A stretch of 42,996 bases of DNA from Alphaproteobacteria bacterium (GCA_016792645.1 JAEUMM010000052.1:1-42996); one strand, 5' to 3'. Positions 21,579-41,750 are shown, counted from the first letter of the stretch. Made by a program: numbers and translations. Notes: generated from the sequence alone by a model not told the origin.

Positions 21579-21602
21579 CATCAACAATGGCAGTGAGGAC
21601 TC

Positions 21603-22868
21603 GTGAACCCATCAACGCCTGACCTCACTGCCAAATCGATTCTGTTCGCCTGGGAACTGGGCGCCAACCTCGGACATATCAAACCGATGTCGGCGCTCGC
21701 CCGGGCGCTTTCTTTGCGCGGCGCCCGCGCCACCTTCGCGGTGCGCGATCTGACCAACGTCCGTCAGATCGGCAAGCGCGGCGAATTCTCGATCCTTCAA
21801 GCCCCGGTCTGGCCCGATCACGAACACAAGGGCCACAATCCCGTCTTCGCAAGTTACGCCGACGTGCTCACCGGCATCGGCTTTGCCGACCCGAACAAGC
21901 TCGGCGCCGTCGTCGACGCATGGGAAGCCGTACTCGATCTCGTGAAGCCGGATATCGTCGTCGCTGATCACGCCCCCGCGTTGCAGGTGGCGTTGCTCGG
22001 CCGGCCGCAGCCGTTGGTCCTTGTCGGCACGCCGTTCACGATGCCGCCGCTCAACCTCGATCGCCTGCCGCCGATCCGCGCCGATCAAGCGCCGGCGCTC
22101 CCCGAGGCGCGCCTGCTGCAATCGGTGAAGTCGGTTCTCGCGTTGCGCGGTCGGCAAAGCCCCGCGCGCCTCGTCGATGTGCTGAAGGCCGACGAACGTC
22201 TGACCTTCGGGTTACCCGAACTCGATCCCTACCGCGCGTATCGGCAGGAACCGGTGCTCCTGCCGCCGGAACCGCTGCCCGCCTTCGTCGCACCGCCGCT
22301 CAAGCCGCGCCTCTTCGTCTACGCCGGTGCCGAAGTCCCGCACCTCGAAAAGATTATCCAGGTCCTGGTTACGATGGACATCGACGTCGTCGCCTATCTG
22401 CGCGGCGATGTCGGGCCGCTGCCGCATTTCTTGAAGCACCGCGGTCACGAAGTTTTCGACACACCGCCGCCGCTCAACGAAATCCTGCCGCGCGTGTCGC
22501 ATGTTCTGTCGCAAGGCGGTGCATTTACCTGCCAAGCGGCGCTCGCCGCCGGACGTCCGCATCTTATCATGCCGCTGCACAACGAGACGGAACTCAACCT
22601 CATGAACTCCGGCGCGCTCGGCGTGGCGCGCCGGATGGATCCGCCGAAAAATGAAAAAGAAGAAAAGGCCATGATCAAGAAGATCGACGCCTTCCTCACC
22701 GACGCACAGATGATGCAAAACGCACGGCAATGGGCGATGACGCTGCAGACGCGCCAGCAACCCGATGGGTTGGGTGCGGCGGTCGCCGCCGTGGAACGCT
22801 GTTTGACGCGCGATCAGATGCGCAGTTCGCGCCTGCGCTCCGCCGCCGCCGCCGCGCAGCCGTCGTAG
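21603..22868 (+). CDS. GT-B glycosyltransferase, GT1/MGT (UDP-glycosyltransferase/MurG-like) type
   Basis: 421 aa. N-terminal ILFAWELGANLGHIKPMSALARAL and C-terminal HVLSQGGAFTCQAALAAGRPHLIMPL resemble the UDP-glycosyltransferase nucleotide-sugar signature. Begins 24 nt after the previous gene. Confidence 0.7.
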   Translation: MNPSTPDLTAKSILFAWELGANLGHIKPMSALARALSLRGARATFAVRDLTNVRQIGKRGEFSILQAPVWPDHEHKGHNPVFASYADVLTGIGFADPNKLGAVVDAWEAVLDLVKPDIVVADHAPALQVALLGRPQPLVLVGTPFTMPPLNLDRLPPIRADQAPALPEARLLQSVKSVLALRGRQSPARLVDVLKADERLTFGLPELDPYRAYRQEPVLLPPEPLPAFVAPPLKPRLFVYAGAEVPHLEKIIQVLVTMDIDVVAYLRGDVGPLPHFLKHRGHEVFDTPPPLNEILPRVSHVLSQGGAFTCQAALAAGRPHLIMPLHNETELNLMNSGALGVARRMDPPKNEKEEKAMIKKIDAFLTDAQMMQNARQWAMTLQTRQQPDGLGAAVAAVERCLTRDQMRSSRLRSAAAAAQPS

Positions 22869-23785
22869 AAGGCGGCCATCACCAAACTCGCCGCGCCCGC
22901 CGACAGCCACCGCATCGGCGTCCAGCTCGAAAACCCTTTGGACATCTCCAGGTGATCCTTCATCAGGCTCACTGTATGCACCGGCAGCCACCAGCGCCGC
23001 GCCGTCATCATGCGCGCGTTATGCAGCGGCGCCGTCGTCACGCGGCACATCCACGCATTCGCATAGCCATAGCGCCAATAACGCCGCATCTGCGTGCGCA
23101 GGCCGTCCGACACGTCATGGCGCACATACCAATTGAAGTCGACGACGGTGCGCGAGCCGGCCGAAGCCAACCGGCACGCAAGCTCCGTGTCCTCGCCCGC
23201 GCCCGGGAAGTCCGGACCGAACCCAAACCCGCCCAGCTTCTCGAAGAGCGTGCGCCGAATGGCGACATTCGCCGTCACGAACAGCGGCGCGTCGGGCTGC
23301 GGCACAGGTTGCGGGATGAGCTCATAATGACCGTTCACGCGCTCGAAGAACCGCGGCCGTTTGGGCATGTTCGGCAACGTCGTCCCAACCACGACGTCGA
23401 GTTCCGGATTCGCGTCCAGCCGCGCCTCCAGCCAATCCAGCCAGAACGGCGGCGGCACGCAGTCGTCGTCCGTGTAGACGATGTAGTCGCCGCGCGCACG
23501 CGCCGCACACTCATTGCGCGCCCGTGCGATACCCACGTTCTGCGGCAACGGATGGTACGAAACGATGTCCGCGAACCGCGCCACGGCCTCCGCATAACGC
23601 GCATCGTGACTGCCGTCGTTGATGGCGACCAGTTCTCGCCCGCGATGACCCTCAATCTGAGGTCGCAAGCTCTCGAGAAGTCGCGCAAGTCCTTGGGGAC
23701 GGCGAAACGTCGAAACCGCAACCGAAATCCGTGGGGTGTCGGACAAGCGTGATCCTGTCAGAATCGCAAGCAACGCACACAGCAT
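22814..23785 (-). CDS. GT-A glycosyltransferase family 2
   Basis: ISVAVSTFRRPQGLARLLESL..., LVAINDGSHD, YIVYTDDDCVPPP. Alternative TTG start at 23746 (MSDTPRISVAV). 3' end overlaps the convergent GT1-like gene by 55 nt. Confidence 0.85.
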   Translation of the reverse strand: MLCALLAILTGSRLSDTPRISVAVSTFRRPQGLARLLESLRPQIEGHRGRELVAINDGSHDARYAEAVARFADIVSYHPLPQNVGIARARNECAARARGDYIVYTDDDCVPPPFWLDWLEARLDANPELDVVVGTTLPNMPKRPRFFERVNGHYELIPQPVPQPDAPLFVTANVAIRRTLFEKLGGFGFGPDFPGAGEDTELACRLASAGSRTVVDFNWYVRHDVSDGLRTQMRRYWRYGYANAWMCRVTTAPLHNARMMTARRWWLPVHTVSLMKDHLEMSKGFSSWTPMRWLSAGAASLVMAAFYDGCAAAAAERRRELRI

Positions 23786-23915
23786 AGGCCCGATCGGAAC
23801 TTACGGCATGCGTGCCGCGCGGTTCGTCCACGGCTTTTCGCGCGCCAGGTCTTTGCCCGCGGGCGATCAACGCTCCATTCTGAACCGCGATTCGCAAATC
23901 CACTCGGACCGGGCA

Positions 23916-24899
23916 ATGCCATACGACAGCGATCACGCCGGAACAGTGATCTCCGCCGATCCGCTCGTCATCTATGCGATGCACGCACCCGGCCGGCCGC
24001 TCGGTATCGCGCCGGCACATGCCGCTGCGCTGCGTGGCCGCAAAGCGCTGCTCCTGCTGGCCCTCGACGCGACGATCGAAGTTGAGGGTGCCGCCGGCGA
24101 ACTCGCGCGCGATCTGAAATCCGCACAAGCCGATCTCCCGGACGTCAACGTTGTCGTCCTGGCCAACACGCCATTCGAAGCCTACCTGCTCGCCGATCTA
24201 AGGATCTCCGCGATGCCGGGAAGCAGATCGATCTTCGTCGACGAAAGCGTCTTCAAGCCCTGGGACGGGCCGGCTGAGTTTGATGCCGTCTATAACGCCA
24301 GCCTCACGCCCGCGAACCGGCACGAACTCGCGCGCGACGTGACGCGCCTCGCGCTCATCTACGACCGCGACCGCTCGAACGATCCGAACCGGTTGGATGA
24401 GTTGAAAGCAAAACTGCCGCGCGCAACCTTCGTCAATCACGCCGAGGGGCAGGGGGCTTACCGCCATCTGTCACCGGAAGAATGCGACCGTCACATCAAT
24501 CGCGCGCGTGTCGGCCTCTGCCTTTCGCGGACCGGCGCGACGGTCGCCGCCATGGAGTACATGCTCGCGGGCCTACCGATCGTCTCGACGCCCAGCCGCG
24601 GCGGACGCGAACGCTATTTGCTGCCGCCCTTCTGCCGCCTCGTCGACGACAATCCCCCCGCCGTCGCGGACGCCGTCGACGTCTTCGTGCGCAAGCCTGT
24701 CCCTAAAGCTGTGATCCGCAATCACGCGCTGCATATGCTGCAGTTCGAGCGCACCAATTTTCTGATCGCGATCAACAATCTCGCGAAAGAGTTTTTCGGC
24801 GTCGAGACGCTGTTCGCCTCGTTCGCGCCGTTTCAAATAGGACTGATCAGTCCGCGCGACCCCCTTCCAATGCAGGCACCGGAGAAGGCCGCGTCATGA
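23916..24899 (+). CDS. GT-B/EX7E-like paralogue 1 (subtype A, degenerate motif)
   Basis: Start moved to MPYDSDHAGTVISADP (23916) by alignment with the four paralogues. Shares LANTPFEAYLL, PPFCRLV and FERTNFLIAINNLAKEFFGV with copy 3. The shared motif reads LSRTGATVAAMEY (first Glu lost). Confidence 0.75.
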   Translation: MPYDSDHAGTVISADPLVIYAMHAPGRPLGIAPAHAAALRGRKALLLLALDATIEVEGAAGELARDLKSAQADLPDVNVVVLANTPFEAYLLADLRISAMPGSRSIFVDESVFKPWDGPAEFDAVYNASLTPANRHELARDVTRLALIYDRDRSNDPNRLDELKAKLPRATFVNHAEGQGAYRHLSPEECDRHINRARVGLCLSRTGATVAAMEYMLAGLPIVSTPSRGGRERYLLPPFCRLVDDNPPAVADAVDVFVRKPVPKAVIRNHALHMLQFERTNFLIAINNLAKEFFGVETLFASFAPFQIGLISPRDPLPMQAPEKAAS

Positions 24900-25894
24900 G
24901 GCTCGACGTCCCGTTGGCCAAACGGCGCGCTGCAGGCGCAATCGTCAGCACCGACCCGTTGATCACCATCGGCAAGCACGAGGACGGTCTGCCGATGGGC
25001 CTCGCGTCGCTTTTCCCCGAACGTTTCGAGAGCAAGCCGTCGCTTCATTTCATGGGCCTCGACTGGACCGCGGAACCGCCCGACGAGGTCGCGTTGATCG
25101 CCGAAGAACTCGCAGACGCGCGCCGCCGTCTCCCCCTGGCCCGCTTCGTCTTCAACGTCAACACGCACTACGAGGCGGCATTGTTTTCGCGCGCCGGAAT
25201 ACCGAACATTGTCGCGAATGGAATGTCGTTCGTCGACGAGCGGACGTTCGTGCCGCCGCCCGCACCGTTCGCAGAGCGCCGCTACGACGCCGTCTACACG
25301 GCCCGCCTCGATCCCTTCAAACGCCACGAACTCGCCGCAAAAATTCCGACCCTGATGCTCGTCTACGGCACGCCCGAGGAAGGCGAGTTGGAGCACGTGA
25401 AGAGCATCCTCCCGCATGCGTACTACGCCAACCACGATGTAGAACCCGGCCGCTATCAGCACATCCATCACAGCAAGATGAGCGCATTGCTCAATCAGTG
25501 CAGCGTAGGGCTTTGCCTCTCGGCCGAAGAGGGCGCGATGCGCAGCGCGATGGAATACCTGCTGTGCGGTCTGCCCGTCGTATCGACGGAAAGCGTCGGC
25601 GGCCGGGACCGCTATTTCATCGGCCCGCACACGCGCGTCGTCCCGCCCGACCCCGACGCCGTCGCGAGCGCCGTGGCGGACCTCAAGGCGCGCGCCTTCC
25701 ACCCTATCGCGGTACGCGAATACGTCAGCCGCCTGGTCGCGTTTGACCGCCACAACTTTCTCACCAGCGCCAACAAGATCATCGAGCGCGAACTGGGCGT
25801 GCGCGATCGCTTCCGGTCGTTCGCGCCCTTCGCAGGCGCCGCGGTGCGCTGGCGCCTCGTTTCCGAAATCGAAGAGGAGTTCGACCGCCGTTGA
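24896..25894 (+). CDS. GT-B/EX7E-like paralogue 2 (subtype B)
   Basis: ATGA overlap with copy 1. VGLCLSAEEGAMRSAMEYLLCGLPVVSTESVGGRDRYF, SRAGIPNIVAN, YDAVYTARLDPFKRHELA, AVREYVSRLVAFDRHNFL. Confidence 0.8.
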   Translation: MRLDVPLAKRRAAGAIVSTDPLITIGKHEDGLPMGLASLFPERFESKPSLHFMGLDWTAEPPDEVALIAEELADARRRLPLARFVFNVNTHYEAALFSRAGIPNIVANGMSFVDERTFVPPPAPFAERRYDAVYTARLDPFKRHELAAKIPTLMLVYGTPEEGELEHVKSILPHAYYANHDVEPGRYQHIHHSKMSALLNQCSVGLCLSAEEGAMRSAMEYLLCGLPVVSTESVGGRDRYFIGPHTRVVPPDPDAVASAVADLKARAFHPIAVREYVSRLVAFDRHNFLTSANKIIERELGVRDRFRSFAPFAGAAVRWRLVSEIEEEFDRR

Positions 25895-26886
25895 GCGAGG
25901 CGCTGAACACGGACCCCTATGTCGGCGGACTGGTCGTCTCGGCCGACCCGGTCATAACCTATTCGAAGCGCAGCACCGATGCGCCCCTGGGTCTCGCAAG
26001 CGCGTGCCCCGAAGCTTTCCGCGGACGAAAGGCGCTGCATCTCATCGGCCTTTCCTACACGATTGAGCCGCGCCGACTCTTTGCCGAGCTCGCCGCGCAC
26101 CTCAAGGCTCTCGCGCCCGAACTGCCCGACAGCCGCTTCGCCGTCTTGGCCAACAGCGAGTTCGAAGCCTATCTGCTGTCGACGATGGGCGTCCCCTCGA
26201 TGCTGTCGAGCCAAGCGGTCTTCATCGACGACAACATCTTCCGCCCGCAGGAGGCGGAGCCGCGCTTCGACGCCATGTACAACGCTCGTCTCCTGCCGAT
26301 GAAACGTCACGAGCTAGCGCGCGACGTGAAGAGCTTGGGCCTTCTCTACGATATCGGTGCGGCGGAAGAGCCGCCGCAATACGACCATGTAAAGGCGCTC
26401 TTGCCTCACGCGACCTTCGTCAATCACGAGGTCGGCGGCGGAACGTACCGTCAGCTTAAGGTCGAGGAATGCGCCGCGCAGCTTAACACGGCGCGTGTAG
26501 GCCTCTGCTTGTCGGCCGAAGAGGGTCTAATGCAGGCCGCACTCGAATATCTCTTGTGCGGGCTGCCGGTCGTCTCGACGCGCAGCATCGGCGGTCGCGA
26601 CCGCTACTTCATGCCGCCGTTCTGCCGCGTCGTCCCCGACGATGCGGCAGCGATCGCCGACGCCGTCGCCACGCTGGCCGGCGCGCGTATCCGTAAGGCC
26701 GCGGTGCGCGGCTACATCATGCATCTACTCAAGTTCGAGCGGCACAATTTCCTCATCGCCGTGAATCGTCTGGCCAAAGAGACGTTCGGCGTCGACGATC
26801 TCTTCACCTCCTTCGCGCCGTTCGAACGCGGCCTCACGCGTTGGCGCAAGCTTGACGATGCCCTCGCGCCGCTGGCGGCCGCATGA
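25891..26886 (+). CDS. GT-B/EX7E-like paralogue 3 (subtype A)
   Basis: TTG start in a TTGA overlap with copy 2. VGLCLSAEEGLMQAALEYLLCGLPVVSTRSIGGRDRYF, LANSEFEAYLL, PPFCRVV, FERHNFLIAVNRLAKETFGV. Confidence 0.8.
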   Translation: MSEALNTDPYVGGLVVSADPVITYSKRSTDAPLGLASACPEAFRGRKALHLIGLSYTIEPRRLFAELAAHLKALAPELPDSRFAVLANSEFEAYLLSTMGVPSMLSSQAVFIDDNIFRPQEAEPRFDAMYNARLLPMKRHELARDVKSLGLLYDIGAAEEPPQYDHVKALLPHATFVNHEVGGGTYRQLKVEECAAQLNTARVGLCLSAEEGLMQAALEYLLCGLPVVSTRSIGGRDRYFMPPFCRVVPDDAAAIADAVATLAGARIRKAAVRGYIMHLLKFERHNFLIAVNRLAKETFGVDDLFTSFAPFERGLTRWRKLDDALAPLAAA

Positions 26887-27890
26887 GCGCTTTTGCCGGA
26901 CCCAAGCCCGGCATCGCGGCCGGCTGCGTGGTCAGCGCATCGCCGCTCGTCACCGTCTCGAAGCGTGAAGCGCCGCTCCCGCTGGGGCTCGCTTCACTCG
27001 CGCCGGAGCGCTTCGCCGACCAACCGTCGCTGAACTTCATCGGCCTCACGTGGTCCCACGAAACGACAGAACTCGTCGAGAAAGTCGCACGTGACTTTGC
27101 CGAAGCTGAGCGGGTGCTGTCCAAGGCGCGCTTCGTGATGCTGGCGAACACGCCGACAGAACAGGTTCAGTTTTCGCGCGCGGGCGTTCCGAACATCCTC
27201 GCCAACGAACTCATCTTCGTCGACGAGCGAGCGTTCGTTCCGCCGCCGCCGGGCGCCAAGCGCCGCCGCCGCTTCGACGCGGTTTACACCGCGCGCCTAC
27301 GAGAACTGAAACGCCACGACCTCGCGAAAGGCGTCGATAATCTGCTGCTCGTCTACGCCGATCCCGAACCCGCCGATTTCGCGCGCGTAAAGTTGGAACT
27401 GCCGAATGCGGTCTTTGCCAATCACGACCTCGGACAAGGCGTGTACCGACACATCGACCAGAAAACGCTACGCGACCTGCTCGGCGCATGCGGCGTAGGA
27501 CTCTGCCTGTCGCCGGTCGAAGGGGCGATGCGCGCATCGATCGAATACAGACTGTGCGGCATGCCGGTCGTGTCCATCCGCAGCGCCGGCGGACGCGATC
27601 GCTACTTGCTCGGTCCCCATGTCCGCGTCGTGGACGCCGACCCGGACGCAATCGCAAGCGCGGTGCGAGACCTCAACGCAACCGTCTTCGACCCCCTCGC
27701 GGTACGCGAGTTTGCGGGCAGCCTCATCGCGTTCGACCGGCACAACTTCCTCGGCGCCGTGAACAAGTTGGTGGAGCACGTATTCGGCGTCCATCACGCC
27801 TTCACGTCCTTCCGCCCCTTCGCTCGTTTCCCGGTGTCATGGCGGCAGCCGGCGGAGATCTTCGCGCCGCTCGACGCGAGGGCCGCATGA
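26883..27890 (+). CDS. GT-B/EX7E-like paralogue 4 (subtype B)
   Basis: ATGA overlap. VGLCLSPVEGAMRASIEYRLCGMPVVSIRSAGGRDRYL, SRAGVPNILAN, FDAVYTARLRELKRHDLA, AVREFAGSLIAFDRHNFL. Confidence 0.8.
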   Translation: MSAFAGPKPGIAAGCVVSASPLVTVSKREAPLPLGLASLAPERFADQPSLNFIGLTWSHETTELVEKVARDFAEAERVLSKARFVMLANTPTEQVQFSRAGVPNILANELIFVDERAFVPPPPGAKRRRRFDAVYTARLRELKRHDLAKGVDNLLLVYADPEPADFARVKLELPNAVFANHDLGQGVYRHIDQKTLRDLLGACGVGLCLSPVEGAMRASIEYRLCGMPVVSIRSAGGRDRYLLGPHVRVVDADPDAIASAVRDLNATVFDPLAVREFAGSLIAFDRHNFLGAVNKLVEHVFGVHHAFTSFRPFARFPVSWRQPAEIFAPLDARAA

Positions 27891-28885
27891 GCGCGGGTGC
27901 CGACCTTGCTGCCGGCTGCATCGCAAGCCTCGATCCGCTGATCACGATGACAAAGCGCGAGCCGCATTTGCCGATGGGGCTCGCGCCGTCGCGGCCGGAC
28001 CTCTTTGCCGACAAGCCCGGGCTTCACCTCGTCGGTCTCACCTGGACGTGCGAATCAGATTGGCTGACGCGCGAGATCGCGGCCGACTTCGCGCGCGCGG
28101 CGGCGACCCTCCCGCGCGCCACGATCGTCGTCGTTGCCAACACGCAGATGGAGTCGTTCTATCTCTCGCGCGCCGGCATCCCGAACCTGTTCGCGAACGA
28201 GCTCATTTTCACCGACGAACGCCTGTTCACAGTCGTGCCGCGACAGCCGCAGGATCTCGCGCGCTTCGACGCCATTTACGTCGCCCGCCTCGAACCTGAA
28301 AAGCGCCACGAACTCGCGGCCGCGATTCCAAGCCTCGTGCTGACCCACGGGCGACCGCCGCCAGGCGGCGAAGCGCGCGTGCGCCGCACGCTGCCTAAGG
28401 CCCGCTTCGCGAACTTCGAGGGCACGGGCGGAACTTACCGCTACCTCGAAGACGCCGAACTCGTGAGCCTGATGAACCGATCCGCCGTCGGCCTCTGCCT
28501 CTCGGCGATCGAAGGATCGATGCGGGTGTCGATGGAGTACCGCCTCGCCGGCACGCCGGTCGTCTCGACGCGCAGCGTCGGCGGCCGCGACCGCTACTTC
28601 ATGGGCCCCCACATCCGCGTCGTCGACGACGACGCGGATGCCGTCGCCGCCGCCGTGCGCGAGCTGAAGGCGCAACGCTTCGACCGGCAGGCGGTACGTG
28701 AATACGTCGGCCAGCTCGTCGCCTTCGACCGTCAGAGCTTCCTGCTCAACCTGAACAAGCTGATCGAATGGCACCTCGGCGTCCGCGACCGCTTTCGCAC
28801 ATTCGCGCCGTTTATGTCACATCCGGTGGCCTGGCGCAGCGCCGCGCAAATCCTGGCGCCTCTCGCCGCCGCTTCAGCGGGCTGA
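27887..28885 (+). CDS. GT-B/EX7E-like paralogue 5 (subtype B)
   Basis: ATGA overlap. Internal start of ORF 27488..28885 chosen by paralogue alignment (MSAGADLAAGCIASLDPLIT). VGLCLSAIEGSMRVSMEYRLAGTPVVSTRSVGGRDRYF, SRAGIPNLFAN, FDAIYVARLEPEKRHELA. Confidence 0.8.
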   Translation: MSAGADLAAGCIASLDPLITMTKREPHLPMGLAPSRPDLFADKPGLHLVGLTWTCESDWLTREIAADFARAAATLPRATIVVVANTQMESFYLSRAGIPNLFANELIFTDERLFTVVPRQPQDLARFDAIYVARLEPEKRHELAAAIPSLVLTHGRPPPGGEARVRRTLPKARFANFEGTGGTYRYLEDAELVSLMNRSAVGLCLSAIEGSMRVSMEYRLAGTPVVSTRSVGGRDRYFMGPHIRVVDDDADAVAAAVRELKAQRFDRQAVREYVGQLVAFDRQSFLLNLNKLIEWHLGVRDRFRTFAPFMSHPVAWRSAAQILAPLAAASAG

Positions 28886-32869: not shown

Positions 32870-33069
32870 GATTTAACCTTTGTTTGACACCAAGAGTGGA
32901 GCATCGAAGCCGGACGCGATCAAGACCGCCGTCGCTTGCCGCAGGTTGCAAAAATAACCGAACAACGGCAAAGCCTTGGCTGTTGCAGGGATTCCGCCGT
33001 AAATTCATTCGTACGCGTTGACAGCTGGATTGCGGGCTGTTGCCGTCGAAACCGGGGGCTAAAGGAACC

Positions 33070-33435
33070 ATGGCGAAAATTCTTCTCGCCGAAGACGACG
33101 AATCAATGCGCCGTTTCCTGGCAAGCGCCCTGGAGAAGGCCGGTCACGAAGTCGCATCCTTTTCACAAGGCGATGAGGCGTTTGACTGTCTCCAAGGCAG
33201 CGACGGCTTCGACCTTCTGCTCACCGACATCGTCATGCCGGTGATGGACGGCATCGAGCTCGCGCGCAAGGCGGCCGATGTCGCCCCCAAAATGAAGATC
33301 ATGTTCATCACGGGCTTTGCCGCCGTTGCGCTCAATCCGAAAAGCAACGCGCCGAAAGACGCCAAGGTTCTCTCGAAGCCCTTCCACCTGCGCGACCTCG
33401 TCAACGAGGTCGAACGCTTCATGGCAGCCGCCTGA
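33070..33435 (+). CDS. cpdR: single-domain response regulator CpdR
   Basis: MAKILLAEDDESMRRFLASALEKAGHEV...LLLTDIVMPVMDGIELARKA...IMFITGFAAVALNPKSNAPKDAKVLSKPFHLRDLVNEVERF closely matches my recollection of Caulobacter/Sinorhizobium CpdR. ATG at 33070 after AAAGGAA. Confidence 0.88.
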   Translation: MAKILLAEDDESMRRFLASALEKAGHEVASFSQGDEAFDCLQGSDGFDLLLTDIVMPVMDGIELARKAADVAPKMKIMFITGFAAVALNPKSNAPKDAKVLSKPFHLRDLVNEVERFMAAA

Positions 33436-33674: not shown

Positions 33675-36600
33675 GTGCGGAGCTATTTGCCCACTAGCCA
33701 TAAGCGGCAAGTCGTGCATTTTGTCACATCTAGTCTGGCCGCCGGAGCGCAGGTGGACGGCATGGTTGTGGACTTGATTGACCGGCAGCGAAGCGGCGGC
33801 GACGGCACGCCCGCAATGGCGACGGTCGTCTTCTTCGACGTCGTCGGATCGACCGAGGCTCTGGCGCGCCTCGAAGACGAGGATTGGCGAGATGCGTTGG
33901 AAGACGCGCGCGATCTGCTCGATCCGCAAATCGACTTCATCATCGATACGGTGCGCGATCTCGGCGGCACCATCGCGCGCGTGCAAGGCGACGGCGTGAT
34001 GGCGGTATTCGGCGCGCCCAAGCCGCTGGAAAGACACGCGGTCAACGCTTGCCTGGCCGCGCTCAAGGTTCGCGATCACTTTCGAGACCGCATGCTTATG
34101 CTGGGTCCGGGGATGTTCGCGGCCATTCGCATCGGCATGCACTTCGGCCGCATCCTGATCCGCAATCGCAAGAATGACATCGGCGGCGTCCTCGACATCG
34201 TCGGTCACGCCGTCCATCGCGCCAAAAAAGTCGAAGCGCTGTGTCCGCCGAATGCGGTTTTGGTCACACGCGAGACGTTGCAGCTGGCCGGCGCCGCGGT
34301 CGACGCCAGACACTGGGAGGCGGGCCTCTTCGAACTCGTCGCCGTGGCGCCGCATCATGATCTGGAACGTCAGTTCCCGGGTGATTTGCTTGAGCCGTTC
34401 GTAGGTCGCGCCGAGATCCTGTCGCGCCTGGTCGCCAACATGGGCGAGGCCTACGCTCACAAAGCCAAGGCGCTCGCATTGGTGGGCGCCGCGGGCCTCG
34501 GCAAAAGCCGCATCCTGTTTGAACTGTCGCGCAAGCTGGAATCGCAAGGCGTGCGCGTCATCGAAATGCGCGGACACGCGGTGCACAGCTTGACGCCGTT
34601 CGCGCCCGTGAAGTCGCTTGTCGCGACGCTCTTGCAGCGCGATGCCGACGATCTGGCCGAGCGTCCGCTGCCGCCCTCGCTGACACAGGGCATCCAAGAA
34701 CTCATGGGTGCGCCGACGGACGATGAGTGGAACAAGCTCGACGCACCCTCGCGCCGCCGCGTTATGATCGAAGCCGCTTGCATGCTGATTGCGCGCGCCG
34801 CGACCAAAGACCCGCTGCTGATCGTCGCCGACGACACTCAGGATTTCGACGCGGAAACGCACGACTTTATTTCGCGCCTAAAGACGTTGGCCGCCGACAC
34901 CCAAATCGCCATCGTCGCAACCGCCCGCACCGCGGCAGCGCTCCCTCCGGCCGTCGACGATATCATCCGCCTCGATCTCTTGAACGAACAGCAGTCCTGG
35001 CAATTCGCGCGCTCGACCGCGGCCGGCGCGCCCATCGAAGAAGCCGATATGGCGCAGGCGATTCGCAATGCGGCGGGCAATCCGCTGTTCCTGCAGTCGC
35101 TGATCCGTCACCTGCGCAGCGGCAAGAAGGGCGGAGCGACGCCGGCCGAATTGGCAAGCCTCGTCCAGTCGCGAATGGATGAACTCAGCGGTCTTTCGAA
35201 GACGGTCTTGTGGGCCGTTGCCGTCCTGCGCGCCAACGTCGCCAAAACCACCCTGGCCGCGACTGTCGATGTCGACGAAGCGGCGCTTGAACCGTTGCTG
35301 GTCGAACTTGAACGCCACGACCTCGTGGCGATCGATGCCGGCGGCGTACGCTTCCGGCATGATCTGTTCCGCGGCGCTGTCGATGCGCTGCTCGTGCGCT
35401 GGCAGCGCAACGAACTGCATCGCCGCGCGCGGCGAGCGCTTGAATCGCAGCCGCAGACGGCCGAGCTGCTCGATCAGTTGACGTACCACGCCGATGAGGC
35501 GGCCGATTTCACCGGCGCGCTTGGATATGTGCTGAAGGCGGTCCAGCTCGCCAAACGCACATCCTCGCTCAAAACGATCCGTGCGCTTTATGACCGCGCG
35601 CAGATGCTCCGGGAGAAGGCGGGCGCCGATGCTGTGCCGGCCTTGTCCGGCGTCACCATCGAAAGCCTCGACGCGCTGCAACAATCGGGCGATCGCGAGG
35701 AATATCGCAAGGCGCTGGAATTCGTCGCCGCATATGCGGCCCGTACCGGCGACCTCCCCAACGAGGGTCTGGCGCGCGCACACTTGGCGCTGCAATGCTG
35801 GATGAACGCTGAGCACGAAGTCGGCCTCGAACACGCCCGCGCGGCGCTTGCGATCGCCGATAAGTTAAACGCTACCGCCGGCCTGGCCCTGCGTGCTCTG
35901 GCCCAACCTCATCTCGCCAACATCGAACATGCGCGGGGCAATCTCGACCGCGCGATCGCGCTGCACCAAGAAATCGTGGCGGCGCTCGAAGGTGAGTATG
36001 AGAAGACGACCCTCGGCCGCATGATCGTCCCCAGCGTGCGTTCCCGCGCCTTCTTGGCTTGGTTCATGATCGACCGCGGCCGTTTCGATGACGCGCAGGC
36101 GCAGATCGCACGCGGCGAGGAAGTGCTGCGCGCGATCGAGCAGCCCTATTCGCGCGTACTGCTCAATGCCGCACGCGGCTATCTGGCTCTGCGCACGGGT
36201 CGCCCGCAAGACGCGATCGCACCGCTGGAACAAGCGCGGACCTTCTGTTTGCAGCAGTTTCTGGTGATGGAGCCGTGCGTTACCGGTTGGCTCGCGAACG
36301 CGTTGGTCGAACGCGGCGACTATCAGCGAGCCGCCGAGGTGGCGACTCATTCGATAAAGTCAAAGCTCTATACCCACGGCGGGCGGTACACCTGGGTGTT
36401 CGTTCACAACGCTCTCGCCGACGCCCTGTTCTTCTGCGGCGACACGCCGAAGAGCATTGAGATGGCCGAAACCGCGCTCTCGATCGCGCGAGAGAGCAAC
36501 GAGCCCATTCAGATCGCCCAAGCCCTGTTCGTTCGTGGTCGCCTCTTCGCCAGGGCTGGCGACCCCGACCGCGGGCTCCCCGATATTCACGCGGCCCAAG

Positions 36601-36677
36601 CGCTCGCCGAGCGCCACGGCCTTGATCCGCTTGCGCGTGACTGCCGCGGCGCTCTACGCGAGTTCGCTGTGGCCTAG
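33675..36677 (+). CDS. class III nucleotidyl cyclase - STAND/AAA NTPase - TPR-like multidomain protein
   Basis: Cyclase domain (ATVVFFDVVGSTE..., GGTIARVQGDGVMAVFGAP, IRIGMHFGRI). Walker A LVGAAGLGKSRILFEL, Walker B PLLIVADDTQDFD. About 450-aa helical-repeat C-terminus. The start may be 33762 (MVVDL). Confidence 0.85.
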   Translation: MRSYLPTSHKRQVVHFVTSSLAAGAQVDGMVVDLIDRQRSGGDGTPAMATVVFFDVVGSTEALARLEDEDWRDALEDARDLLDPQIDFIIDTVRDLGGTIARVQGDGVMAVFGAPKPLERHAVNACLAALKVRDHFRDRMLMLGPGMFAAIRIGMHFGRILIRNRKNDIGGVLDIVGHAVHRAKKVEALCPPNAVLVTRETLQLAGAAVDARHWEAGLFELVAVAPHHDLERQFPGDLLEPFVGRAEILSRLVANMGEAYAHKAKALALVGAAGLGKSRILFELSRKLESQGVRVIEMRGHAVHSLTPFAPVKSLVATLLQRDADDLAERPLPPSLTQGIQELMGAPTDDEWNKLDAPSRRRVMIEAACMLIARAATKDPLLIVADDTQDFDAETHDFISRLKTLAADTQIAIVATARTAAALPPAVDDIIRLDLLNEQQSWQFARSTAAGAPIEEADMAQAIRNAAGNPLFLQSLIRHLRSGKKGGATPAELASLVQSRMDELSGLSKTVLWAVAVLRANVAKTTLAATVDVDEAALEPLLVELERHDLVAIDAGGVRFRHDLFRGAVDALLVRWQRNELHRRARRALESQPQTAELLDQLTYHADEAADFTGALGYVLKAVQLAKRTSSLKTIRALYDRAQMLREKAGADAVPALSGVTIESLDALQQSGDREEYRKALEFVAAYAARTGDLPNEGLARAHLALQCWMNAEHEVGLEHARAALAIADKLNATAGLALRALAQPHLANIEHARGNLDRAIALHQEIVAALEGEYEKTTLGRMIVPSVRSRAFLAWFMIDRGRFDDAQAQIARGEEVLRAIEQPYSRVLLNAARGYLALRTGRPQDAIAPLEQARTFCLQQFLVMEPCVTGWLANALVERGDYQRAAEVATHSIKSKLYTHGGRYTWVFVHNALADALFFCGDTPKSIEMAETALSIARESNEPIQIAQALFVRGRLFARAGDPDRGLPDIHAAQALAERHGLDPLARDCRGALREFAVA

Positions 36678-39600
36678 CCGGACAACTGCGTCGGCGAAAA
36701 CCGCACATGCAGACTATTGGGCAGTCCCAGCAACGGCGTTGTGTCGCCCTTCGGTCCCGCGGCGCGTCGCATGAGTTTCAGCTGCGCGCATGCCTTCAGC
36801 ATCTCACGCACGAGCAGCAGCCCGATCCGTTCACCCCAGCAATGATGCAAAGCCATGCGCTCTGCGGAAGCGTCCTTGTCCCCGCCGGGATGCGGCGCGT
36901 CCGCATTCTTCGGTCCGCCGAACGTGAGATAGGCGTTCGCATCGCGCGAAAGCGAAAACTCGTCGGGCGGCGGATTGCCGAACACACGCCAATCGCGGTT
37001 CGCCGCCATCACCATCAGCACCACAAGATCGCCGTCTTCGACGGAGGCGCCCGAAGGCAGCTTGTTCCAGTTGGGATCGTCCGGGTTGGCTTTCACAGTC
37101 CGGAATTGAATCGCGCCGGCCGGATTGAGCCGAAGCGCCTCCTCGATGAACCGCGAGAGCAGCCGATCGTCGGTGGCGCCCTGCGCCGCGATGAGCTCGC
37201 TCGTGTCCATACTGTGATCGATGACAAGCTCCATCACGCGGCAGAACGGCGAACCCACGTTGACCATCAGCGCACCCAGAAGATCCGTGATGATCAGCCG
37301 CGTGCGCCGCATCTTGTCGTCCAAATTGCCGGGCGCCGTCGGCCACTGCTCGACAAGCTTGGCCAGCAGATTGCACGCGCCCGACGGTGAGGCGGCTTCC
37401 TTGGCGATCAGTTGGTCGATGTACAGCTGCATTTCGACCGCCGCTTGCCGAGCCATACCGGCAAGGTCGCCGCGCCGGTTGATGTTCGTGAAAACCTCCG
37501 CGAAGGCAAAGCGCGTCCAAGTTTGCAGCGTAAGATAGGGCCACGAACTCTCCGGAACAGACGGCGCGCGCTGCAGCCATTCGCGCGGCGTTTCGGCGGC
37601 GTTCGTGCGTCCGTATTTCGCGGCAATGGCGACGGGCGTCAGCCAGTTAGGCCCCGTCACGCCGAAGAACTGATGCACGAACAAGAACGGCACCAGGAAT
37701 CCGAACTGCTGCAGCAAGTCCATGCGTCCGGTAGGCCCCACGCGCGCCAGCACCTGACGCGCCGTCTGCGCCGTGAACGCGACCATCTCCTTATGCAGAT
37801 CGTTCACGCCGGTCGGGCAGATTGCACTGTACGCACGCCACAGCATCTCAGTGCGGATCTTACGGTCGGCATCGCCGTCGGGCAGGCCGATGATCACCGT
37901 ATCGGCGGTCAGATGCTTGCCGATATCGAGATAGTGCTTCTCCGTGAACACGGTACTGTTGGTCTGCGCATGCGCAACGTCCGCATGTCGCCCCAAGAAC
38001 ACGACGCCGCGCTCCTGCCCCGTGCTCGACGGCGACAGCTTCAAGCGCTGCGTTGATGGCAGAGTCGCGCCGGGCTTGGCGATGATGATCTTGGCGTAGT
38101 CCTGAAGCCTCTCCTTCGAGATGAGCTCAAAACCCGGCCGTATAGATCCTTCACCCGGTCGGTAGGCTGCGTTCGTCTCCGGCGGCAGCCTATCCTTCTC
38201 GTCCGCGATCGCCCCCAATTCCTTCAGAGCGCCAAGCGCATCGAGGCTGGGAACGAAGAAGTAGTCGCCGCCGCGCGTCGTTACAAAGCGCGGCAAGTGG
38301 GTTTCGGGGGCCGTGCGCCCGCTTTCCTGGAACGCATCTGTATGCCGCTGTTCCGACGCGCCGGTCAGAGGGCACAGTCCGGCGCCGGCCCTGCCGAACA
38401 CCTCGCCCGTGTTGATCCAGTCGCGCTGAATGAACTCGAACTGCAAATCAATGCGCGCGTTCAGCGCCACAAACAACAGGCCACGCGGCTCGCCGTCGCC
38501 GTTCGTCCCCGGCGGCAACAAAGAGCCGCCATAGGAAATGCCGCGTCTCAAGATGCGATGCCGCCGCGCCGCCTCGCCGTCCAGATGGTCGCGCGGATTC
38601 GTGCGCCGCACATGCGCGCCGATCGGGCACTTCTGCCCATGCACATCTTCCGCCTCGAAGCGGAAGTCGTTGATGGTATTCGCGTCGTTCTTGGCCGTTG
38701 CCGCTTGCGCATCGGGATGGCGCACGATCGGCGTTCCGTTCGGCCAGCGTCCCATCATCTGCGCGCCAAGCCGCGCGCGTTCCTCCGGGTCGCGCCGCCG
38801 CTCCTCCAAGAAGGCATGAAAACCCGCGACGTCTTGCTCCAGCTTGCGCCACACAAGATACGTACCGCCGTCGCGCAGTCTCGCGTTTGCGGGCTCGACG
38901 GCAACCAGGCGGTCTTCGTCCTTGAAGCCGAGGAACAGTTCGCCCGTCGCCACTGGCGCCCACGTCCCGTCCGGCATCGGACGTCCGCCGCCGGGCGGTG
39001 GCGGGGAGGGCAGCGCGCCGCCATGCACGTCGGTCAGCACGAACGGCTGACTGATGCCGTCGCGAAAGCCAAAATGCTCCAAGCGCCACGGATAGTCGTG
39101 GATCTGGCCGTCTTGTTCCGTGAACGGATCTTCCCCCATCTCGATGTGGAGGATCTCAGCGCCGATGGCATCGATCGCGATCTCGTTGATTTGCTCGCGA
39201 AGACGGCTTGCGGCGCCGTTCGCCGCCATGCCTCGATTGAACTCGCGCACCGCCGCGCGAAGCTTCGTGCGCTCGCGCGCATCCCGCGCAATCAGCTGCG
39301 CGCTGGACAGCATCAGCAACGCATGCACGCGCCGGTCGCCAAGCGCCCCGTGCCAATTCTCAGGTGCGGACTCGCCGTTGTCGGCCAAGAGATGCGCGCG
39401 CGCCGCCATGCCTTGTTGGAACGCCTCGGGGAACGTCCGCAGCGTGTCGCCGTTGACGCCCAATGTTTTGAGTCCATTGAACGTGAACGACAGCGTCGAT
39501 CGCCAAACGAGGCCGTCCAGAGCAGGCGCGACATCGGCGAACGACGTGGATTGTCCCTTCGCGATTGCGTCGAGGGTCAGCACAATCCGTCCCGCGCGAT

Positions 39601-39874
39601 CCTCCGCCGCCTTCCTGCTCTCGCGCAACGCTTTGGTGTTGCGCGTCTCGTCCGCCGAGTTGGTTCGCAGCACAAACTCGATCAGATCCTTCGCGTCGCC
39701 GGGCCCGTCGTTCGACGAACCGTCCAGGCCCGAGAGGACGAACCGCGCGCGGTTCTTCTTTTCGCTCTTCGACAAGAATCGCAGAAACAGAAACAGCGCC
39801 AAGCCGCGGTGCGCCGCAGTCGTCGTGTGCGATTGAAGATGCGAAACATCGACCGCTATGTTTGGCGTCGCCAT
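36674..39874 (-). CDS. DyP-type peroxidase :: cytochrome P450 fusion protein
   Basis: 1066 aa. DyP motifs in aa ~180-550: HFGFRDGISQP (GXXDG), CPIGAHVRRTNPRD (proximal His), RRGISYGG, GLLFVALNARIDLQFEFIQ. P450 motifs in aa ~600-1066: FIEEALRLNP (ExxR), MAANRDWRVFGNPPPDEFSLSRD, YLTFGG...(insertion)...HHCWGERIG (Cys codon at 36839-36841). GGAG lies 9 nt before the ATG. Confidence 0.85.
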   Translation of the reverse strand: MATPNIAVDVSHLQSHTTTAAHRGLALFLFLRFLSKSEKKNRARFVLSGLDGSSNDGPGDAKDLIEFVLRTNSADETRNTKALRESRKAAEDRAGRIVLTLDAIAKGQSTSFADVAPALDGLVWRSTLSFTFNGLKTLGVNGDTLRTFPEAFQQGMAARAHLLADNGESAPENWHGALGDRRVHALLMLSSAQLIARDARERTKLRAAVREFNRGMAANGAASRLREQINEIAIDAIGAEILHIEMGEDPFTEQDGQIHDYPWRLEHFGFRDGISQPFVLTDVHGGALPSPPPPGGGRPMPDGTWAPVATGELFLGFKDEDRLVAVEPANARLRDGGTYLVWRKLEQDVAGFHAFLEERRRDPEERARLGAQMMGRWPNGTPIVRHPDAQAATAKNDANTINDFRFEAEDVHGQKCPIGAHVRRTNPRDHLDGEAARRHRILRRGISYGGSLLPPGTNGDGEPRGLLFVALNARIDLQFEFIQRDWINTGEVFGRAGAGLCPLTGASEQRHTDAFQESGRTAPETHLPRFVTTRGGDYFFVPSLDALGALKELGAIADEKDRLPPETNAAYRPGEGSIRPGFELISKERLQDYAKIIIAKPGATLPSTQRLKLSPSSTGQERGVVFLGRHADVAHAQTNSTVFTEKHYLDIGKHLTADTVIIGLPDGDADRKIRTEMLWRAYSAICPTGVNDLHKEMVAFTAQTARQVLARVGPTGRMDLLQQFGFLVPFLFVHQFFGVTGPNWLTPVAIAAKYGRTNAAETPREWLQRAPSVPESSWPYLTLQTWTRFAFAEVFTNINRRGDLAGMARQAAVEMQLYIDQLIAKEAASPSGACNLLAKLVEQWPTAPGNLDDKMRRTRLIITDLLGALMVNVGSPFCRVMELVIDHSMDTSELIAAQGATDDRLLSRFIEEALRLNPAGAIQFRTVKANPDDPNWNKLPSGASVEDGDLVVLMVMAANRDWRVFGNPPPDEFSLSRDANAYLTFGGPKNADAPHPGGDKDASAERMALHHCWGERIGLLLVREMLKACAQLKLMRRAAGPKGDTTPLLGLPNSLHVRFSPTQLSG

Positions 39875-40689
39875 TTTCTAAGCTCCGAAAATCGGTCAGT
39901 CTGTTCGTTGTCGTAAAGTCCCGCCTCGTCCGGAAAGTCCTTGGTGTAGGCCTGCTGTTCGATGACGAATTCGTCGAACAAGGCCGCGATATCCGCGACC
40001 GACTTGCCGTCCGGGCCGCGCGTTCGCACGACAAAGGCGTCGAACTGATCTTTGAACACACGCAGTTGCTGCACGCGCGCGACCGAAAGATCCGGATAGG
40101 CCGCAAAGAACGCGTTTGTCTCGATCTGATGCGCGCGCACATAGAGCCAAAACCGCTCGAAGTCTCTGGCGCCGGCGCGCGGATAGCCCTCGCAATTGCT
40201 CCAGATGCGATCCATCTCGGATGCGATCCGTTCCGAGAACATGCGGATATAGGCCTTAAGATCGCCGTCGTAGTTTGACGTGAACACCAGCCACGACGGC
40301 AACACCGGCGCGTCGGGCGGCGGCATCTTGTCGGCCGGGCGATAGTCGGGCGAATAGGGCGCCGGAACATTTGCGGGCAAAGTTGGCGGCGAGGCATGCG
40401 GATCTACGCCTGCGGGCGGCGCTGCCTCATACTCGACGCCCTTGACCGCGGAGTACCTCAAATACTGCTCGGGTCGCACGATGAACCAGCGCGCAAAATG
40501 GATCGTGGCGATGGCGCTGATCGGCGTTGGGATACCGGCGTTCGCCCGCTCGTTCAGCGACGCCAGCAACGACCTCAGCCGTTCTTCATAGGTGCGGTAT
40601 TCGCCCGGGATGAAGCCGCGCTTGATCGGCGTCAGCACGGTGACCTCCGTTACCCTGCCGCGGGCGGTCGATGTGGCCCAAGGATGCAT
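39856..40689 (-). CDS. hypothetical 277-aa protein, first gene of the DyP::P450 operon
   Basis: Clean ORF with balanced composition (VTVLTPIKRGFIPGEYRTYEERL..., TIHFARWFIV, DGDLKAYIRMFSERIASEMDRIWSNCEGYP). I recognise no motif with confidence. Its 3' end overlaps the fusion gene start by 19 nt. Confidence 0.65.
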   Translation of the reverse strand: MHPWATSTARGRVTEVTVLTPIKRGFIPGEYRTYEERLRSLLASLNERANAGIPTPISAIATIHFARWFIVRPEQYLRYSAVKGVEYEAAPPAGVDPHASPPTLPANVPAPYSPDYRPADKMPPPDAPVLPSWLVFTSNYDGDLKAYIRMFSERIASEMDRIWSNCEGYPRAGARDFERFWLYVRAHQIETNAFFAAYPDLSVARVQQLRVFKDQFDAFVVRTRGPDGKSVADIAALFDEFVIEQQAYTKDFPDEAGLYDNEQTDRFSELRKWRRQT

Positions 40690-41006
40690 GGTGGATCACT
40701 CTCTGGTCGCGCAACTACCGGAGTATGTTGCTACCAAATAATGGCGCACTTGTTGAATGTTGTGTTATGTAGAATATTTTCAGAGAAGATTTGACAACGA
40801 TAAGGATTATTTGGATCAAAGATCAATACAGACGCGAGAGGGTCAGAAGAATAATTGCGTGGATCGATCGCTGGGTGCGCGCCGCAGGCAAATGTCTTGC
40901 GCATCGCTGTCGTTTCTTGTGTACGGCGAATTGGGTCAGGCTTGCCAAACGTGGCACGCCTGCCAATAGTCGGCACCAATCCTGTTCTCGTAGCAGTTGC
41001 GCACGG
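40690..41006. promoter_or_regulatory. AT-rich divergent control region
   Basis: Visibly lower GC than its surroundings (e.g. TTGTTGAATGTTGTGTTATGTAGAATATTTTCAGAGAAGATTTGACAACGATAAGGATTATTTGGATCAAAGATCAATAC). sigma70-like TTGAAT-N16-TATTTT (40753-40780), TTGACA at 40791, tandem GATCAA-A-GATCAA (40814-40826). Confidence 0.5.
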
Positions 41007-41750
41007 ATGATCTTACCGGACTTCATATCTCGCCTGACGCCCGACCAGCGGAAGCTATGGGAGACCCCTCCCGTCGCCGTCGTTGAAAAGCAAGTCGTCG
41101 TCAGCCCCGACATGCCCAGCACCGACGTGTTTTTCGTTGTGAAGGGCGAGTTCGAAGTATCGACCTACTCGGAACGCGGGAAGATCGTCTTCTACCGTGT
41201 GATCGGCCCAGGCGATTTGTTCGGCGAACTCGCGGCAATCGACGGCGGGCTGCGCTCGGCGACCGTCACCTCGCTCGGCGAGGGCCTGTTGATCCGTATC
41301 GGGGGCGCCGACTTCAAGAACTTGGTGGAAACGTCCCCCGATGTGGCGATGTGGTTGGTGCGAAGGCACACAGCGCTCATCCGCACCCTGACGGAGCGGC
41401 TCTATCAGCAGATCGCCTACGATGTCGCGACGCGAATCTTGGCCGAGTTGATTCGCCTCGCGGAGGTCGCGGGCGTGACCGACAACCGCGCCCACATTTT
41501 GCGCTTCCCGCCGCACCATGTTCTGGCGACGCGTCTCGGCACAACGCGCGAGGCCGTGACGCGCGAGCTGAATTACTTAGGCCCAAAGGAACAGGACGCG
41601 GCGCCCGGCAACGACGCCGACAACGAGAAGCCCAAGAAGGGCGACAAGAAAGAGAATCTGAATCTCATCGAACAAACGGGGCGAGAATTGATCGTCTACG
41701 ACTTCGCCGCCCTAAGGCGCCTCTTGAGAGAGCGCACGACGATTCCGTGA
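41007..41750 (+). CDS. Crp/Fnr-family transcriptional regulator (cNMP-binding domain + HTH)
   Basis: Start at MILPDFISRL (41007). cNMP-binding beta-roll VFFVVKGEFEV...GPGDLFGELAAIDGGLRSATVTSLGEGLLIRI. HTH LATRLGTTREAVTRELNYL, followed by a charged insertion before ...GRELIVYDFAALRRLL. Confidence 0.85.
   Translation: MILPDFISRLTPDQRKLWETPPVAVVEKQVVVSPDMPSTDVFFVVKGEFEVSTYSERGKIVFYRVIGPGDLFGELAAIDGGLRSATVTSLGEGLLIRIGGADFKNLVETSPDVAMWLVRRHTALIRTLTERLYQQIAYDVATRILAELIRLAEVAGVTDNRAHILRFPPHHVLATRLGTTREAVTRELNYLGPKEQDAAPGNDADNEKPKKGDKKENLNLIEQTGRELIVYDFAALRRLLRERTTIP

Follow-up and report, generated by a model that had tools for sequence, protein, structure and literature searches.

A class V DyP peroxidase fused to a divergent cytochrome P450 and encoded next to a conserved partner protein in Alphaproteobacteria and other bacteria

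To our knowledge, few natural two-haem fusions have characterised chemistry. The fungal Ppo enzymes and linoleate diol synthases (LDS) are di-haem fusions of a dioxygenase with a cytochrome P450 (DOX-CYP), which pass a reactive intermediate between their haem domains (PMC13049297, PMC4420034). Among DyP-type peroxidases, a 2022 InterPro survey described an "unexplored" subclass, V4, that bears a cytochrome P450 domain, and proposed that its two domains either scavenge H2O2 jointly or carry out a two-step synthesis in the manner of Ppo (PMC9719856); proteins that combine a DyP with a P450, and both of these functional hypotheses, are therefore already on record. Here, we analyse a 42,996-nucleotide stretch of alphaproteobacterial DNA (GCA_016792645.1, JAEUMM010000052.1:1-42996), referred to throughout as the window, in which a single gene encodes a class V DyP joined to a P450, and we describe the conservation of this gene, its upstream partner and its regulatory neighbours in related genomes.

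The open reading frame (ORF) at 36674-39874 (minus strand) is uninterrupted and encodes 1066 amino acids (aa), carrying two complete sets of haem-enzyme residues, as had been proposed in a first-pass annotation made from the sequence alone. Its start codon is credible, with GGAG lying 8 nt 5' of an ATG that sits within the last codons of the upstream partner gene, and Met1, Gln14 and Phe30 are almost invariant among full-length homologues, which come from independent assemblies and show 35-89% identity. More than 570 relatives were scored; over 100 clusters drawn from NCBI, JGI, ENA and Logan assemblies share this architecture, near-identical proteins recur across independent assemblies from these sources, and isolate genomes encoding the fusion include Reyranella soli NBRC 108950, Nitratireductor sp. 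XY-223, Hoeflea sp. TYP-13 and Rhodomicrobium (WP_088345800.1). For the notion that a frameshift or mis-assembly had fused two genes, named at the outset as something that could undo the proposal, we found no support: split versions exist, yet only in other phyla, and the conservation of the architecture across independent assemblies, isolates included, refutes such an artefact, to which we give practically no credence. The locus is confirmed as one real gene made of two complete haem-enzyme domains, with ligand and catalytic residues conserved family-wide. All motifs quoted in the first-pass annotation are present where it had placed them; the spacing of about 50 residues that it gave between the two sets holds for the start of the P450 domain, whereas some 430 residues separate the P450 motifs themselves from the last DyP motif. 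The features of the gene are listed below, with residue conservation counted over 120 homologues of the fusion and local model confidence given as predicted local distance difference test (pLDDT).

36674..39874, minus strand: DyP::P450 fusion gene, a single ORF of 1066 codons plus stop
38210..39874, minus strand: DyP domain, residues 1-555, class V (C/D-type), from phmmer against the PDB and Foldseek
39044..39076, minus strand: GXXDG motif HFGFRDGISQP, residues 267-277, coordinates checked
39059-39061, minus strand: distal Asp272, D in 119/120
38612..38614, minus strand: proximal haem ligand His421, H in 120/120
38546..38548, minus strand: distal Arg443, R in 120/120
38417..38419, minus strand: Trp486 in FEFIQxxWxN, invariant in the homologue alignment and aligned to a Trp of 7ANV
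38060..38209, minus strand: inter-domain linker, residues 556-605, with lower pLDDT (50-89 by block)
36677..38059, minus strand: P450 domain, residues ~606-1066, from a domain profile against the PDB and Foldseek
37259..37261, minus strand: I-helix Thr position, here Asn872, with Val871 at the preceding acid position, from the alignment
37130..37141, minus strand: ExxR motif (E912-R915) in FIEEALRLNP, E in 120/120 and R in 119/120
36848..36916, minus strand: insertion of ~20 residues in the Cys-ligand loop (987-1009), gapped in ~100+ of 120
36839..36841, minus strand: haem thiolate Cys1012 in HHCWG, C in 119/120, with G1014 and F985 each in 119/120

The N-terminal half of the protein is recognisable as a DyP by both sequence and predicted fold. 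Pfam PF20628 (Dyp_perox_C) passes its cut-off (28.4 bits vs 20), whereas PF21105 (DyP_N) falls just under (26.5 vs 27.5), as does NCBIfam TIGR01413 by a wider gap (93.8 vs 100.5). The best phmmer matches in the PDB are class C/D enzymes: DrDyP from Deinococcus radiodurans comes first (8RE3, 3e-42), and the others are an ancestral D-type DyP (7ANV), DyP2 from Amycolatopsis (4G2C), fungal AauDyP and AnaPX. A Foldseek search with an AlphaFold2 (AF2) model of the fusion found the DyP fold, with 8re3 matched at a target-normalised TM-score of 0.81 (E=1.6e-23); the related entry 8RE2 is listed as a D. radiodurans DyP of class C (PMC13234801). Stand-alone class C/D DyPs (DrDyP 8RE2/8RE3, DyP2 4G2C and AnaPX 5C2I) share with residues 1-555 the fold, the GXXDG Asp, the distal Arg and the proximal His but, unlike the fusion, lack a P450 domain.

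Within this domain, the GXXDG motif reads G269-F-R-D272-G273 and, together with R443 and H421, is conserved in at least 119 of the 120 homologues. The proximal His421 lies in CPIGAHVRRTNPRD (residues 416-429) and the distal Arg443 in RILRRGISYGG (residues 440-450), with LFVALNARIDLQFEFIQ following at residues 467-483. Because of its spacing to the distal Phe and its alignment to 7ANV, Trp486 is probably the equivalent of Trp377, the surface radical site of AauDyP; the corresponding site-5 Trp is conserved across DyP subclasses V1-V4 (PMC9719856).

The P450 half is more divergent. The hmmscan check named in the first-pass annotation would by itself have failed for this domain, as PF00067 reaches only 9.9 bits on the fusion alone, against a gathering score of 22.8. 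This failure is due to divergence of the domain and not to its absence: most homologues carry a precomputed PF00067 match, and a profile built from 28 P450-domain sequences retrieved 696 PDB P450 sequences at E<=1e-3, with the CYP125 ancestor CYP125MRCA (5e-40), PikC and CalO2 as best matches. Foldseek of the AF2 model gave target-normalised TM-scores of 0.77 for CalO2, 0.75-0.77 for P450BioI and 0.76 for CYP134A1 (overall 0.73-0.77). By sequence profile and predicted fold, the P450 domain proves to be real, divergent but complete, upholding its earlier recognition from motifs.

Its hallmark residues (E912/R915, R925, R977, F985-G986, C1012 and G1014) are conserved, with the F985-G986...H1010-x-C1012-x-G1014 pattern, E912/R915 and the meander residue R977 each found in at least 118 of 120 homologues; Cys1012 is borne by HHCWGERIG, and the segment AANRDW...SLSRD spans residues 957-978. 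At the level of the alignment, these counts and those for the DyP residues show both haem sites to be under purifying selection. The I helix is less uniform, as the acid-alcohol pair (D/E-T) is replaced in this protein by Val871-Asn872. An acid occupies position 871 in 21 of the 120 homologues and is missing in the other 99, while at position 872 Thr is found in 71 homologues and Asn in 26, this protein included. In many alphaproteobacterial members the acid and the Thr are both absent; Nitrospira forms keep Glu-Thr, and split forms have Pro-Thr-Thr.

Lack of the canonical acid-alcohol pair is a feature shared with CYP74 allene oxide synthase (AOS) and hydroperoxide lyase (HPL), with CYP8A/CYP5A and with CYP152. 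None of these, the CYP152 peroxygenases included, needs a redox partner, and the Cys loop of CYP74 contains an insertion as well. The domain studied here, however, shows no specific affinity to these reductase-independent P450s in sequence or fold, its best matches being ordinary class I bacterial P450s. Its own Cys-loop insertion, which has pLDDT values below 50 at residues 991-1005, was considered as a CYP74-like family hallmark and rejected, being confined to 11 close relatives. It also differs from self-sufficient P450s (CYP102/CYP116B), which are fused to a flavin or Fe-S reductase, in that the polypeptide shows DyP and P450 families only. Towards its N-terminal side, the P450 domain of alphaproteobacterial fused forms carries a separate insertion of ~37 residues (residues 743-780, in the N-terminal half; 37535-37648, minus strand), with an invariant Trp766, which is absent from Nitrospira fused forms and from all split or stand-alone P450s. 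A candidate role for this insertion is to dock the DyP domain or the partner protein.

The AF2 model of the whole protein has a mean pLDDT of 83.8 and a predicted TM-score (pTM) of 0.88, a value that, over a 1066-residue chain of two ~500-residue domains, implies a defined mutual arrangement of the domains in the model. Neither domain profile matches the linker (residues 556-605), and Foldseek returned no PDB chain spanning both halves of the fusion. The highest 19-residue hydropathy (1.62) falls within the buried I helix, leaving no transmembrane segment, and no signal peptide was apparent on inspection of the N-terminus; the protein is therefore probably cytoplasmic, as far as its sequence indicates.

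Compared with the described systems, the fusion resembles V4 in uniting a class V DyP with a P450 within a single uncharacterised polypeptide and in conserving the DyP active-site residues and the site-5 Trp (PMC9719856). The domain order differs. V4 is given as an N-terminal P450, transmembrane regions and a C-terminal DyP (PMC9719856, section 3.2), whereas our protein has the DyP (1-555) before the P450 (606-1066) and no transmembrane region, and the same DyP>P450 order is seen in all 75 fused clusters that we examined. V4 is probably the same family, its order having been given in reverse and buried P450 helices having been scored as transmembrane segments; alternatively, V4 may be a separate, more distant family. 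With the Ppo/LDS enzymes, the fusion shares an N-terminal peroxidase-type haem domain, a C-terminal P450 and the absence of a reductase domain, and these enzymes provide a precedent for a hydroperoxide being handed between haem domains. Their N-terminal domain, however, has the animal-peroxidase/cyclooxygenase fold instead of the ferredoxin-like alpha+beta fold of a DyP, and, unlike the bacterial fusion, they are eukaryotic enzymes with a known substrate and known products; by analogy, the fusion may work in a Ppo-like manner, but it is not a member of the Ppo/LDS family. Full-text literature searches found no biochemical, structural or genetic study of any DyP-P450 member, the 2022 survey being the sole relevant paper among the results. 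The suggestion that DyP::P450 enzymes are novel thus stands as regards biochemical characterisation but not as regards the protein type, which had been catalogued in 2022 with the same two hypotheses (PMC9719856).

Members of the DyP-P450 fusion family have a wide distribution and are frequent in soil and freshwater Alphaproteobacteria, Nitrospira and Gemmatimonadota. A DyP-domain scan over 1.84 billion representatives yielded 1233 proteins at E<=1e-30; among the best 150 clusters (50% identity), the DyP>P450 order was found in 75 and the P450>DyP order in none. In a survey of loci from 80 species-representative genomes, 30 were fused (Hyphomicrobiaceae, Rhodomicrobium, Reyranella, Hoeflea, Nitratireductor, Caulobacter, Phenylobacterium, Rhizobiaceae, Nitrospira and Gemmatimonadales), so that the fusion spans Alphaproteobacteria, Nitrospira and Gemmatimonadota. 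Split versions, whose existence as adjacent genes the first-pass annotation had proposed to look for, were found in 8 of the 80 (Acidoferrales, Angelobacter, Solirubrobacterales and Gemmatimonadaceae), that is, in Acidobacteriota, Solirubrobacterales and a single Gemmatimonadaceae genome, and about 40 of the 80 have a DyP without an adjacent P450. The 30 fused and 8 adjacent-split loci show that the association of DyP and P450 recurs.

Two further elements of the locus, a partner gene and a cyclase/Crp regulatory context, were absent from the first-pass annotation and are added here:

39856..40689, minus strand: partner gene encoding a 277-aa alpha+beta protein, its last 19 nt overlapping the start of the fusion gene
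33675..36677, plus strand: cyclase-STAND-TPR neighbour, convergent with the fusion gene (Pfam Guanylate_cyc, AAA_16 and TPR_12)
41007..41750, plus strand: Crp/Fnr-type regulator, divergent from the partner gene (Pfam cNMP-binding and HTH_Crp_2; NCBIfam CRP, 40 bits)

The partner belongs to a family of 230-300-aa proteins encoded 5' of the DyP in almost all related loci, in at least five phyla; upstream partner genes were seen, for example, at loci L037-L087, before each DyP. Alphaproteobacteria and Nitrospira have one copy, and Acidobacteriota, Solirubrobacterales and Gemmatimonadota have two tandem, diverged copies. The protein has no match in Pfam, NCBIfam or PADLOC, and its best PDB match by sequence reaches only E=0.29. 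Among its 153 homologues, Glu15, Glu30, Glu35, Arg48, His64, Asp143, Tyr147, Asp160, Cys166, Trp181 and Gln188 are invariant. Its AF2 model (pLDDT 86.3) shows a ferredoxin-like alpha+beta unit followed by C-terminal helices, and the best matches of this model in a fold search of the PDB, at a non-significant E=0.27, are dimeric alpha+beta-barrel proteins (Dabb/ABM-like), which suggests a resemblance to that class at the level of the predicted fold class at most. The possibility that the partner is a diverged piece of the fusion was rejected, with a profile-profile comparison probability of 0.2%. As the partner goes with the DyP at almost every locus, the evolutionary core of the system is the partner or partners together with the DyP, and the P450 is an accessory joined to it by fusion; a P450 is lacking in many relatives that do encode the DyP and the partner.

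On its other side, the fusion gene meets a convergent gene for a protein of ~1000 aa in which a class III cyclase-homology domain is followed by an AAA_16 STAND ATPase and TPR repeats, the two stop codons overlapping in the window. Such a gene abuts or overlaps the stop of the fusion in 22 of the 23 evaluable alphaproteobacterial loci, and both metal-binding Asp residues of the cyclase-homology domain (residues ~60-200) are kept, as is the STAND Walker A motif. In a Hyphomicrobiaceae-type locus (L007, 11187-14624, minus strand), the cyclase-STAND-TPR protein bears an extra N-terminal OmpR-type Trans_reg_C domain; this domain content suggests that proteins of the L007 type can act directly as transcription factors of the adjacent operon. 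Besides the cyclase-STAND genes, the sole recurrent neighbours among the 23 loci are Crp-type regulators, found in 9 of them and present also in L001, L004 and L006. At 7 of 30 loci (L006, L015, L016, L019, L020, L026 and L032), the region 5' of the partner gene contains a CRP-like site (TGTGA-N6-xCACA, matching 9 of 10 consensus bases), compared with a background of 0.8% in random 380-bp windows; as several of these loci are closely related, they represent fewer than seven independent events. In the window itself, a palindrome, TGGCACGCCTGCCA (TGGCA-N4-TGCCA), is located at 40952-40965 between the crp-like and partner genes, and a sequence footprint against L001, L009 and L010 showed it to be conserved in the orthologous intergenic region of L001 and in part in that of L009. 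It may serve as an operator for the regulator of this clade. A defence system pairing a Pycsar-like cyclase with an effector that binds cyclic nucleoside monophosphate (cNMP) was considered and rejected, as PADLOC gave weak matches at the domain level only (PycC at 30 bits and a PycTIR cNMP domain).

Outside Alphaproteobacteria, no family exceeded 3 loci in a census of neighbours at ~33 loci. The module has patatin-like phospholipase genes in its vicinity at 3 of the 23 alphaproteobacterial and 3 of the ~33 other loci (e.g. L038:7472-8635 and L050:2489-3538), and FadL/TodX outer-membrane transporters at 3 loci, a weak hint at a lipid or hydrophobic substrate.

The likeliest reading of the module, held with rather less than even confidence, is that of a reductase-independent, peroxide-driven oxidase that acts in two sequential steps. 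The fusion would be a cytoplasmic two-haem oxidoreductase in which a short linker and a fixed interface connect an H2O2-activating class V DyP with a haem-thiolate P450, both domains serving in turn one small hydrophobic or aromatic substrate, with NAD(P)H and ferredoxin not involved. The DyP haem, with Asp272, Arg443 and His421, would cleave the peroxide; the substrate would be oxidised by this haem directly or through a radical site at Trp486; and the P450 haem, bound by Cys1012, would then oxygenate, couple or rearrange the product, drawing on peroxide or on the oxidised intermediate and not on reductively activated O2. The translationally coupled 277-aa protein is an obligatory partner and may serve in substrate presentation, cofactor handling or a third step. 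In Alphaproteobacteria, the abutting cyclase-STAND-TPR protein would be a sensor that turns the module on, its signal being relayed by a cyclic nucleotide and the nearby Crp-type regulator or, in cases where it has a DNA-binding domain of its own, given directly. In this scheme we infer peroxide as the oxidant, sequential action of the domains in one pathway, a P450 that does not depend on canonical reductive O2 activation, what the partner does, and how the regulation is wired.

Suggestive of this scheme is the I-helix proton-relay acid, missing in 99 of 120 homologues. The absence of a nearby redox partner, claimed in the first-pass annotation, also held up: the major ORFs of the 43-kb window include no ferredoxin, reductase or cytochrome P450 reductase (CPR) partner, and the 150 ORFs that neighbour the module at 23 related loci show no recurring ferredoxin or reductase family. 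Several observations weigh on the other side. The I-helix Thr is kept in 71 of 120 relatives and the Nitrospira forms retain the canonical Glu-Thr, so the P450 may activate O2 in the ordinary way; most bacterial P450 genes have no linked redox partner, which makes the absence of one weak evidence; and the many loci with DyP and partner proteins but without a P450 make the P450 step accessory to the core function. As to the regulatory part, the transition-state Asn of the cyclase domain is replaced by His in 16 of 25 orthologues and its partner Arg is variable, so that cyclic-nucleotide synthesis is uncertain and the domain, judged by these residues, may be a weak or atypical cyclase, while the window's own promoter carries no CRP-consensus site, its best match reaching 6 of 10 bases.

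Doubtful in our judgement, but deserving a full hearing, is a conventional O2- and NAD(P)H-dependent P450 served by unlinked housekeeping ferredoxin and ferredoxin reductase, in which case the fusion would just co-localise two tailoring or catabolic steps, such as hydroxylation or demethylation followed by peroxidative oxidation. The nearness of the domain, in sequence and fold, to the class I bacterial P450s CYP125, PikC, CalO2 and BioI speaks for this, as do the Thr in 71/120, the Glu-Thr of the Nitrospira forms and the Pro-Thr-Thr of the split forms; the acid missing in 99/120, the many alphaproteobacterial members without acid and Thr and the lack of any recurring redox partner over 23 loci do not. 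The query clade moreover carries its 20-residue insertion on the proximal Cys loop, a face that is the usual docking side for P450 redox partners, which would be awkward for a conventional enzyme. Peroxide detoxification, with both haem domains scavenging H2O2 or organic hydroperoxides as a stress defence, appears unlikely to us, although H2O2 scavenging was the first suggestion made for V4 and both haem types react with peroxides (PMC9719856). While a probably cytoplasmic protein under dedicated, signal-dependent regulation would suit a defensive role, the peroxidase requires a reducing co-substrate, the neighbour families shown include no regulator of the OxyR/PerR type (only 3 of 23 loci have a LysR-type one), and detoxification leaves unexplained a P450 substrate fold with its Cys ligand, the alpha+beta partner and the maintenance of both fused and split forms.

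A slightly less likely proposal again is a Ppo-like oxylipin route, a sub-case of the peroxide-driven two-step module, in which a DyP Trp or Tyr radical would take a hydrogen from a fatty acid, O2 would add to give a hydroperoxide, and the P450 would isomerise it in the manner of CYP74, CYP8A or Ppo-CYP. The domain order of Ppo/LDS enzymes, peroxidase-like at the N-terminus and P450 at the C-terminus, matches that of the fusion, and Asn872, like the Asn of 26/120 relatives, occupies the I-helix position at which Asn is catalytic in AOS and prostaglandin I synthase (PGIS); patatin genes (3/23 and 3/~33 loci) and FadL/TodX transporters (3 loci) would fit a lipid substrate. This Asn is not family-wide, however, the lipid-related neighbours are rare, the structurally nearest P450s are neither CYP74 nor CYP8A, and we know of no DyP that dioxygenates fatty acids. 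Very unlikely, finally, is a relay in which Trp486 and the fixed interface conduct oxidising equivalents from DyP compound I towards the P450 haem or its bound substrate. P450s lack the Asp/Arg machinery for H2O2 cleavage that the DyP haem has, and a relay would permit P450 chemistry with neither a reductase nor a direct peroxide shunt, leaving the alpha+beta partner to tune or gate the transfer.

The rest of the window has a chromosomal, alphaproteobacterial look, with genes for BipA, CpdR, carbonic anhydrase and SulP, and the closest named relatives are alphaproteobacterial metagenome-assembled genomes (MAGs), including a Micropepsaceae MAG. The single-domain response regulator next to the cyclase gene (33040-33435, plus strand) was considered as part of the module and rejected, as it is the housekeeping CpdR; its NCBIfam score (198 bits vs a cut-off of 180) places the region in the core alphaproteobacterial chromosome. 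Further away, a run of co-oriented ORFs at 20217-28882 (plus strand), followed by GT4 and metallophosphoesterase genes on the opposite strand, contains two weak GT1-type glycosyltransferases, shows synteny with L001 and, from this gene content, is probably a polysaccharide locus; five of its ORFs (20217-21575, 21603-22865, 22730-23749, 23736-24896 and 27488-28882) have no Pfam match. At 1285-3966 (plus strand), an 894-aa protein combines a region like an ADP-forming acyl-CoA synthetase (CoA_binding, Succ_CoA_lig and ATP-grasp_5) with a C-terminal GNAT domain, an architecture that we take to be that of Pat-type protein lysine acetyltransferases.

The fusion is a variant of the known peroxidase-P450 theme and not categorically new; as the combination of DyP and P450 had already been catalogued, what is new here is the operon partner, the distribution of fused and split forms, and the association with cyclase-STAND and Crp-type genes. 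A bacterial DyP::P450 enzyme would be an independent invention of the DOX-CYP logic on a different peroxidase fold and, should its P450 indeed run on peroxide or on the oxidising equivalents of the DyP, would offer a template for reductase-free P450 biocatalysis. The alpha+beta partner, the fused and split forms of the different phyla and the cyclase-STAND/Crp control unit provide experimental entry points. The role of class V DyPs is still largely obscure, and our findings suggest that these peroxidases should be studied jointly with the partner gene, whose family may be key to their physiological role in bacteria.

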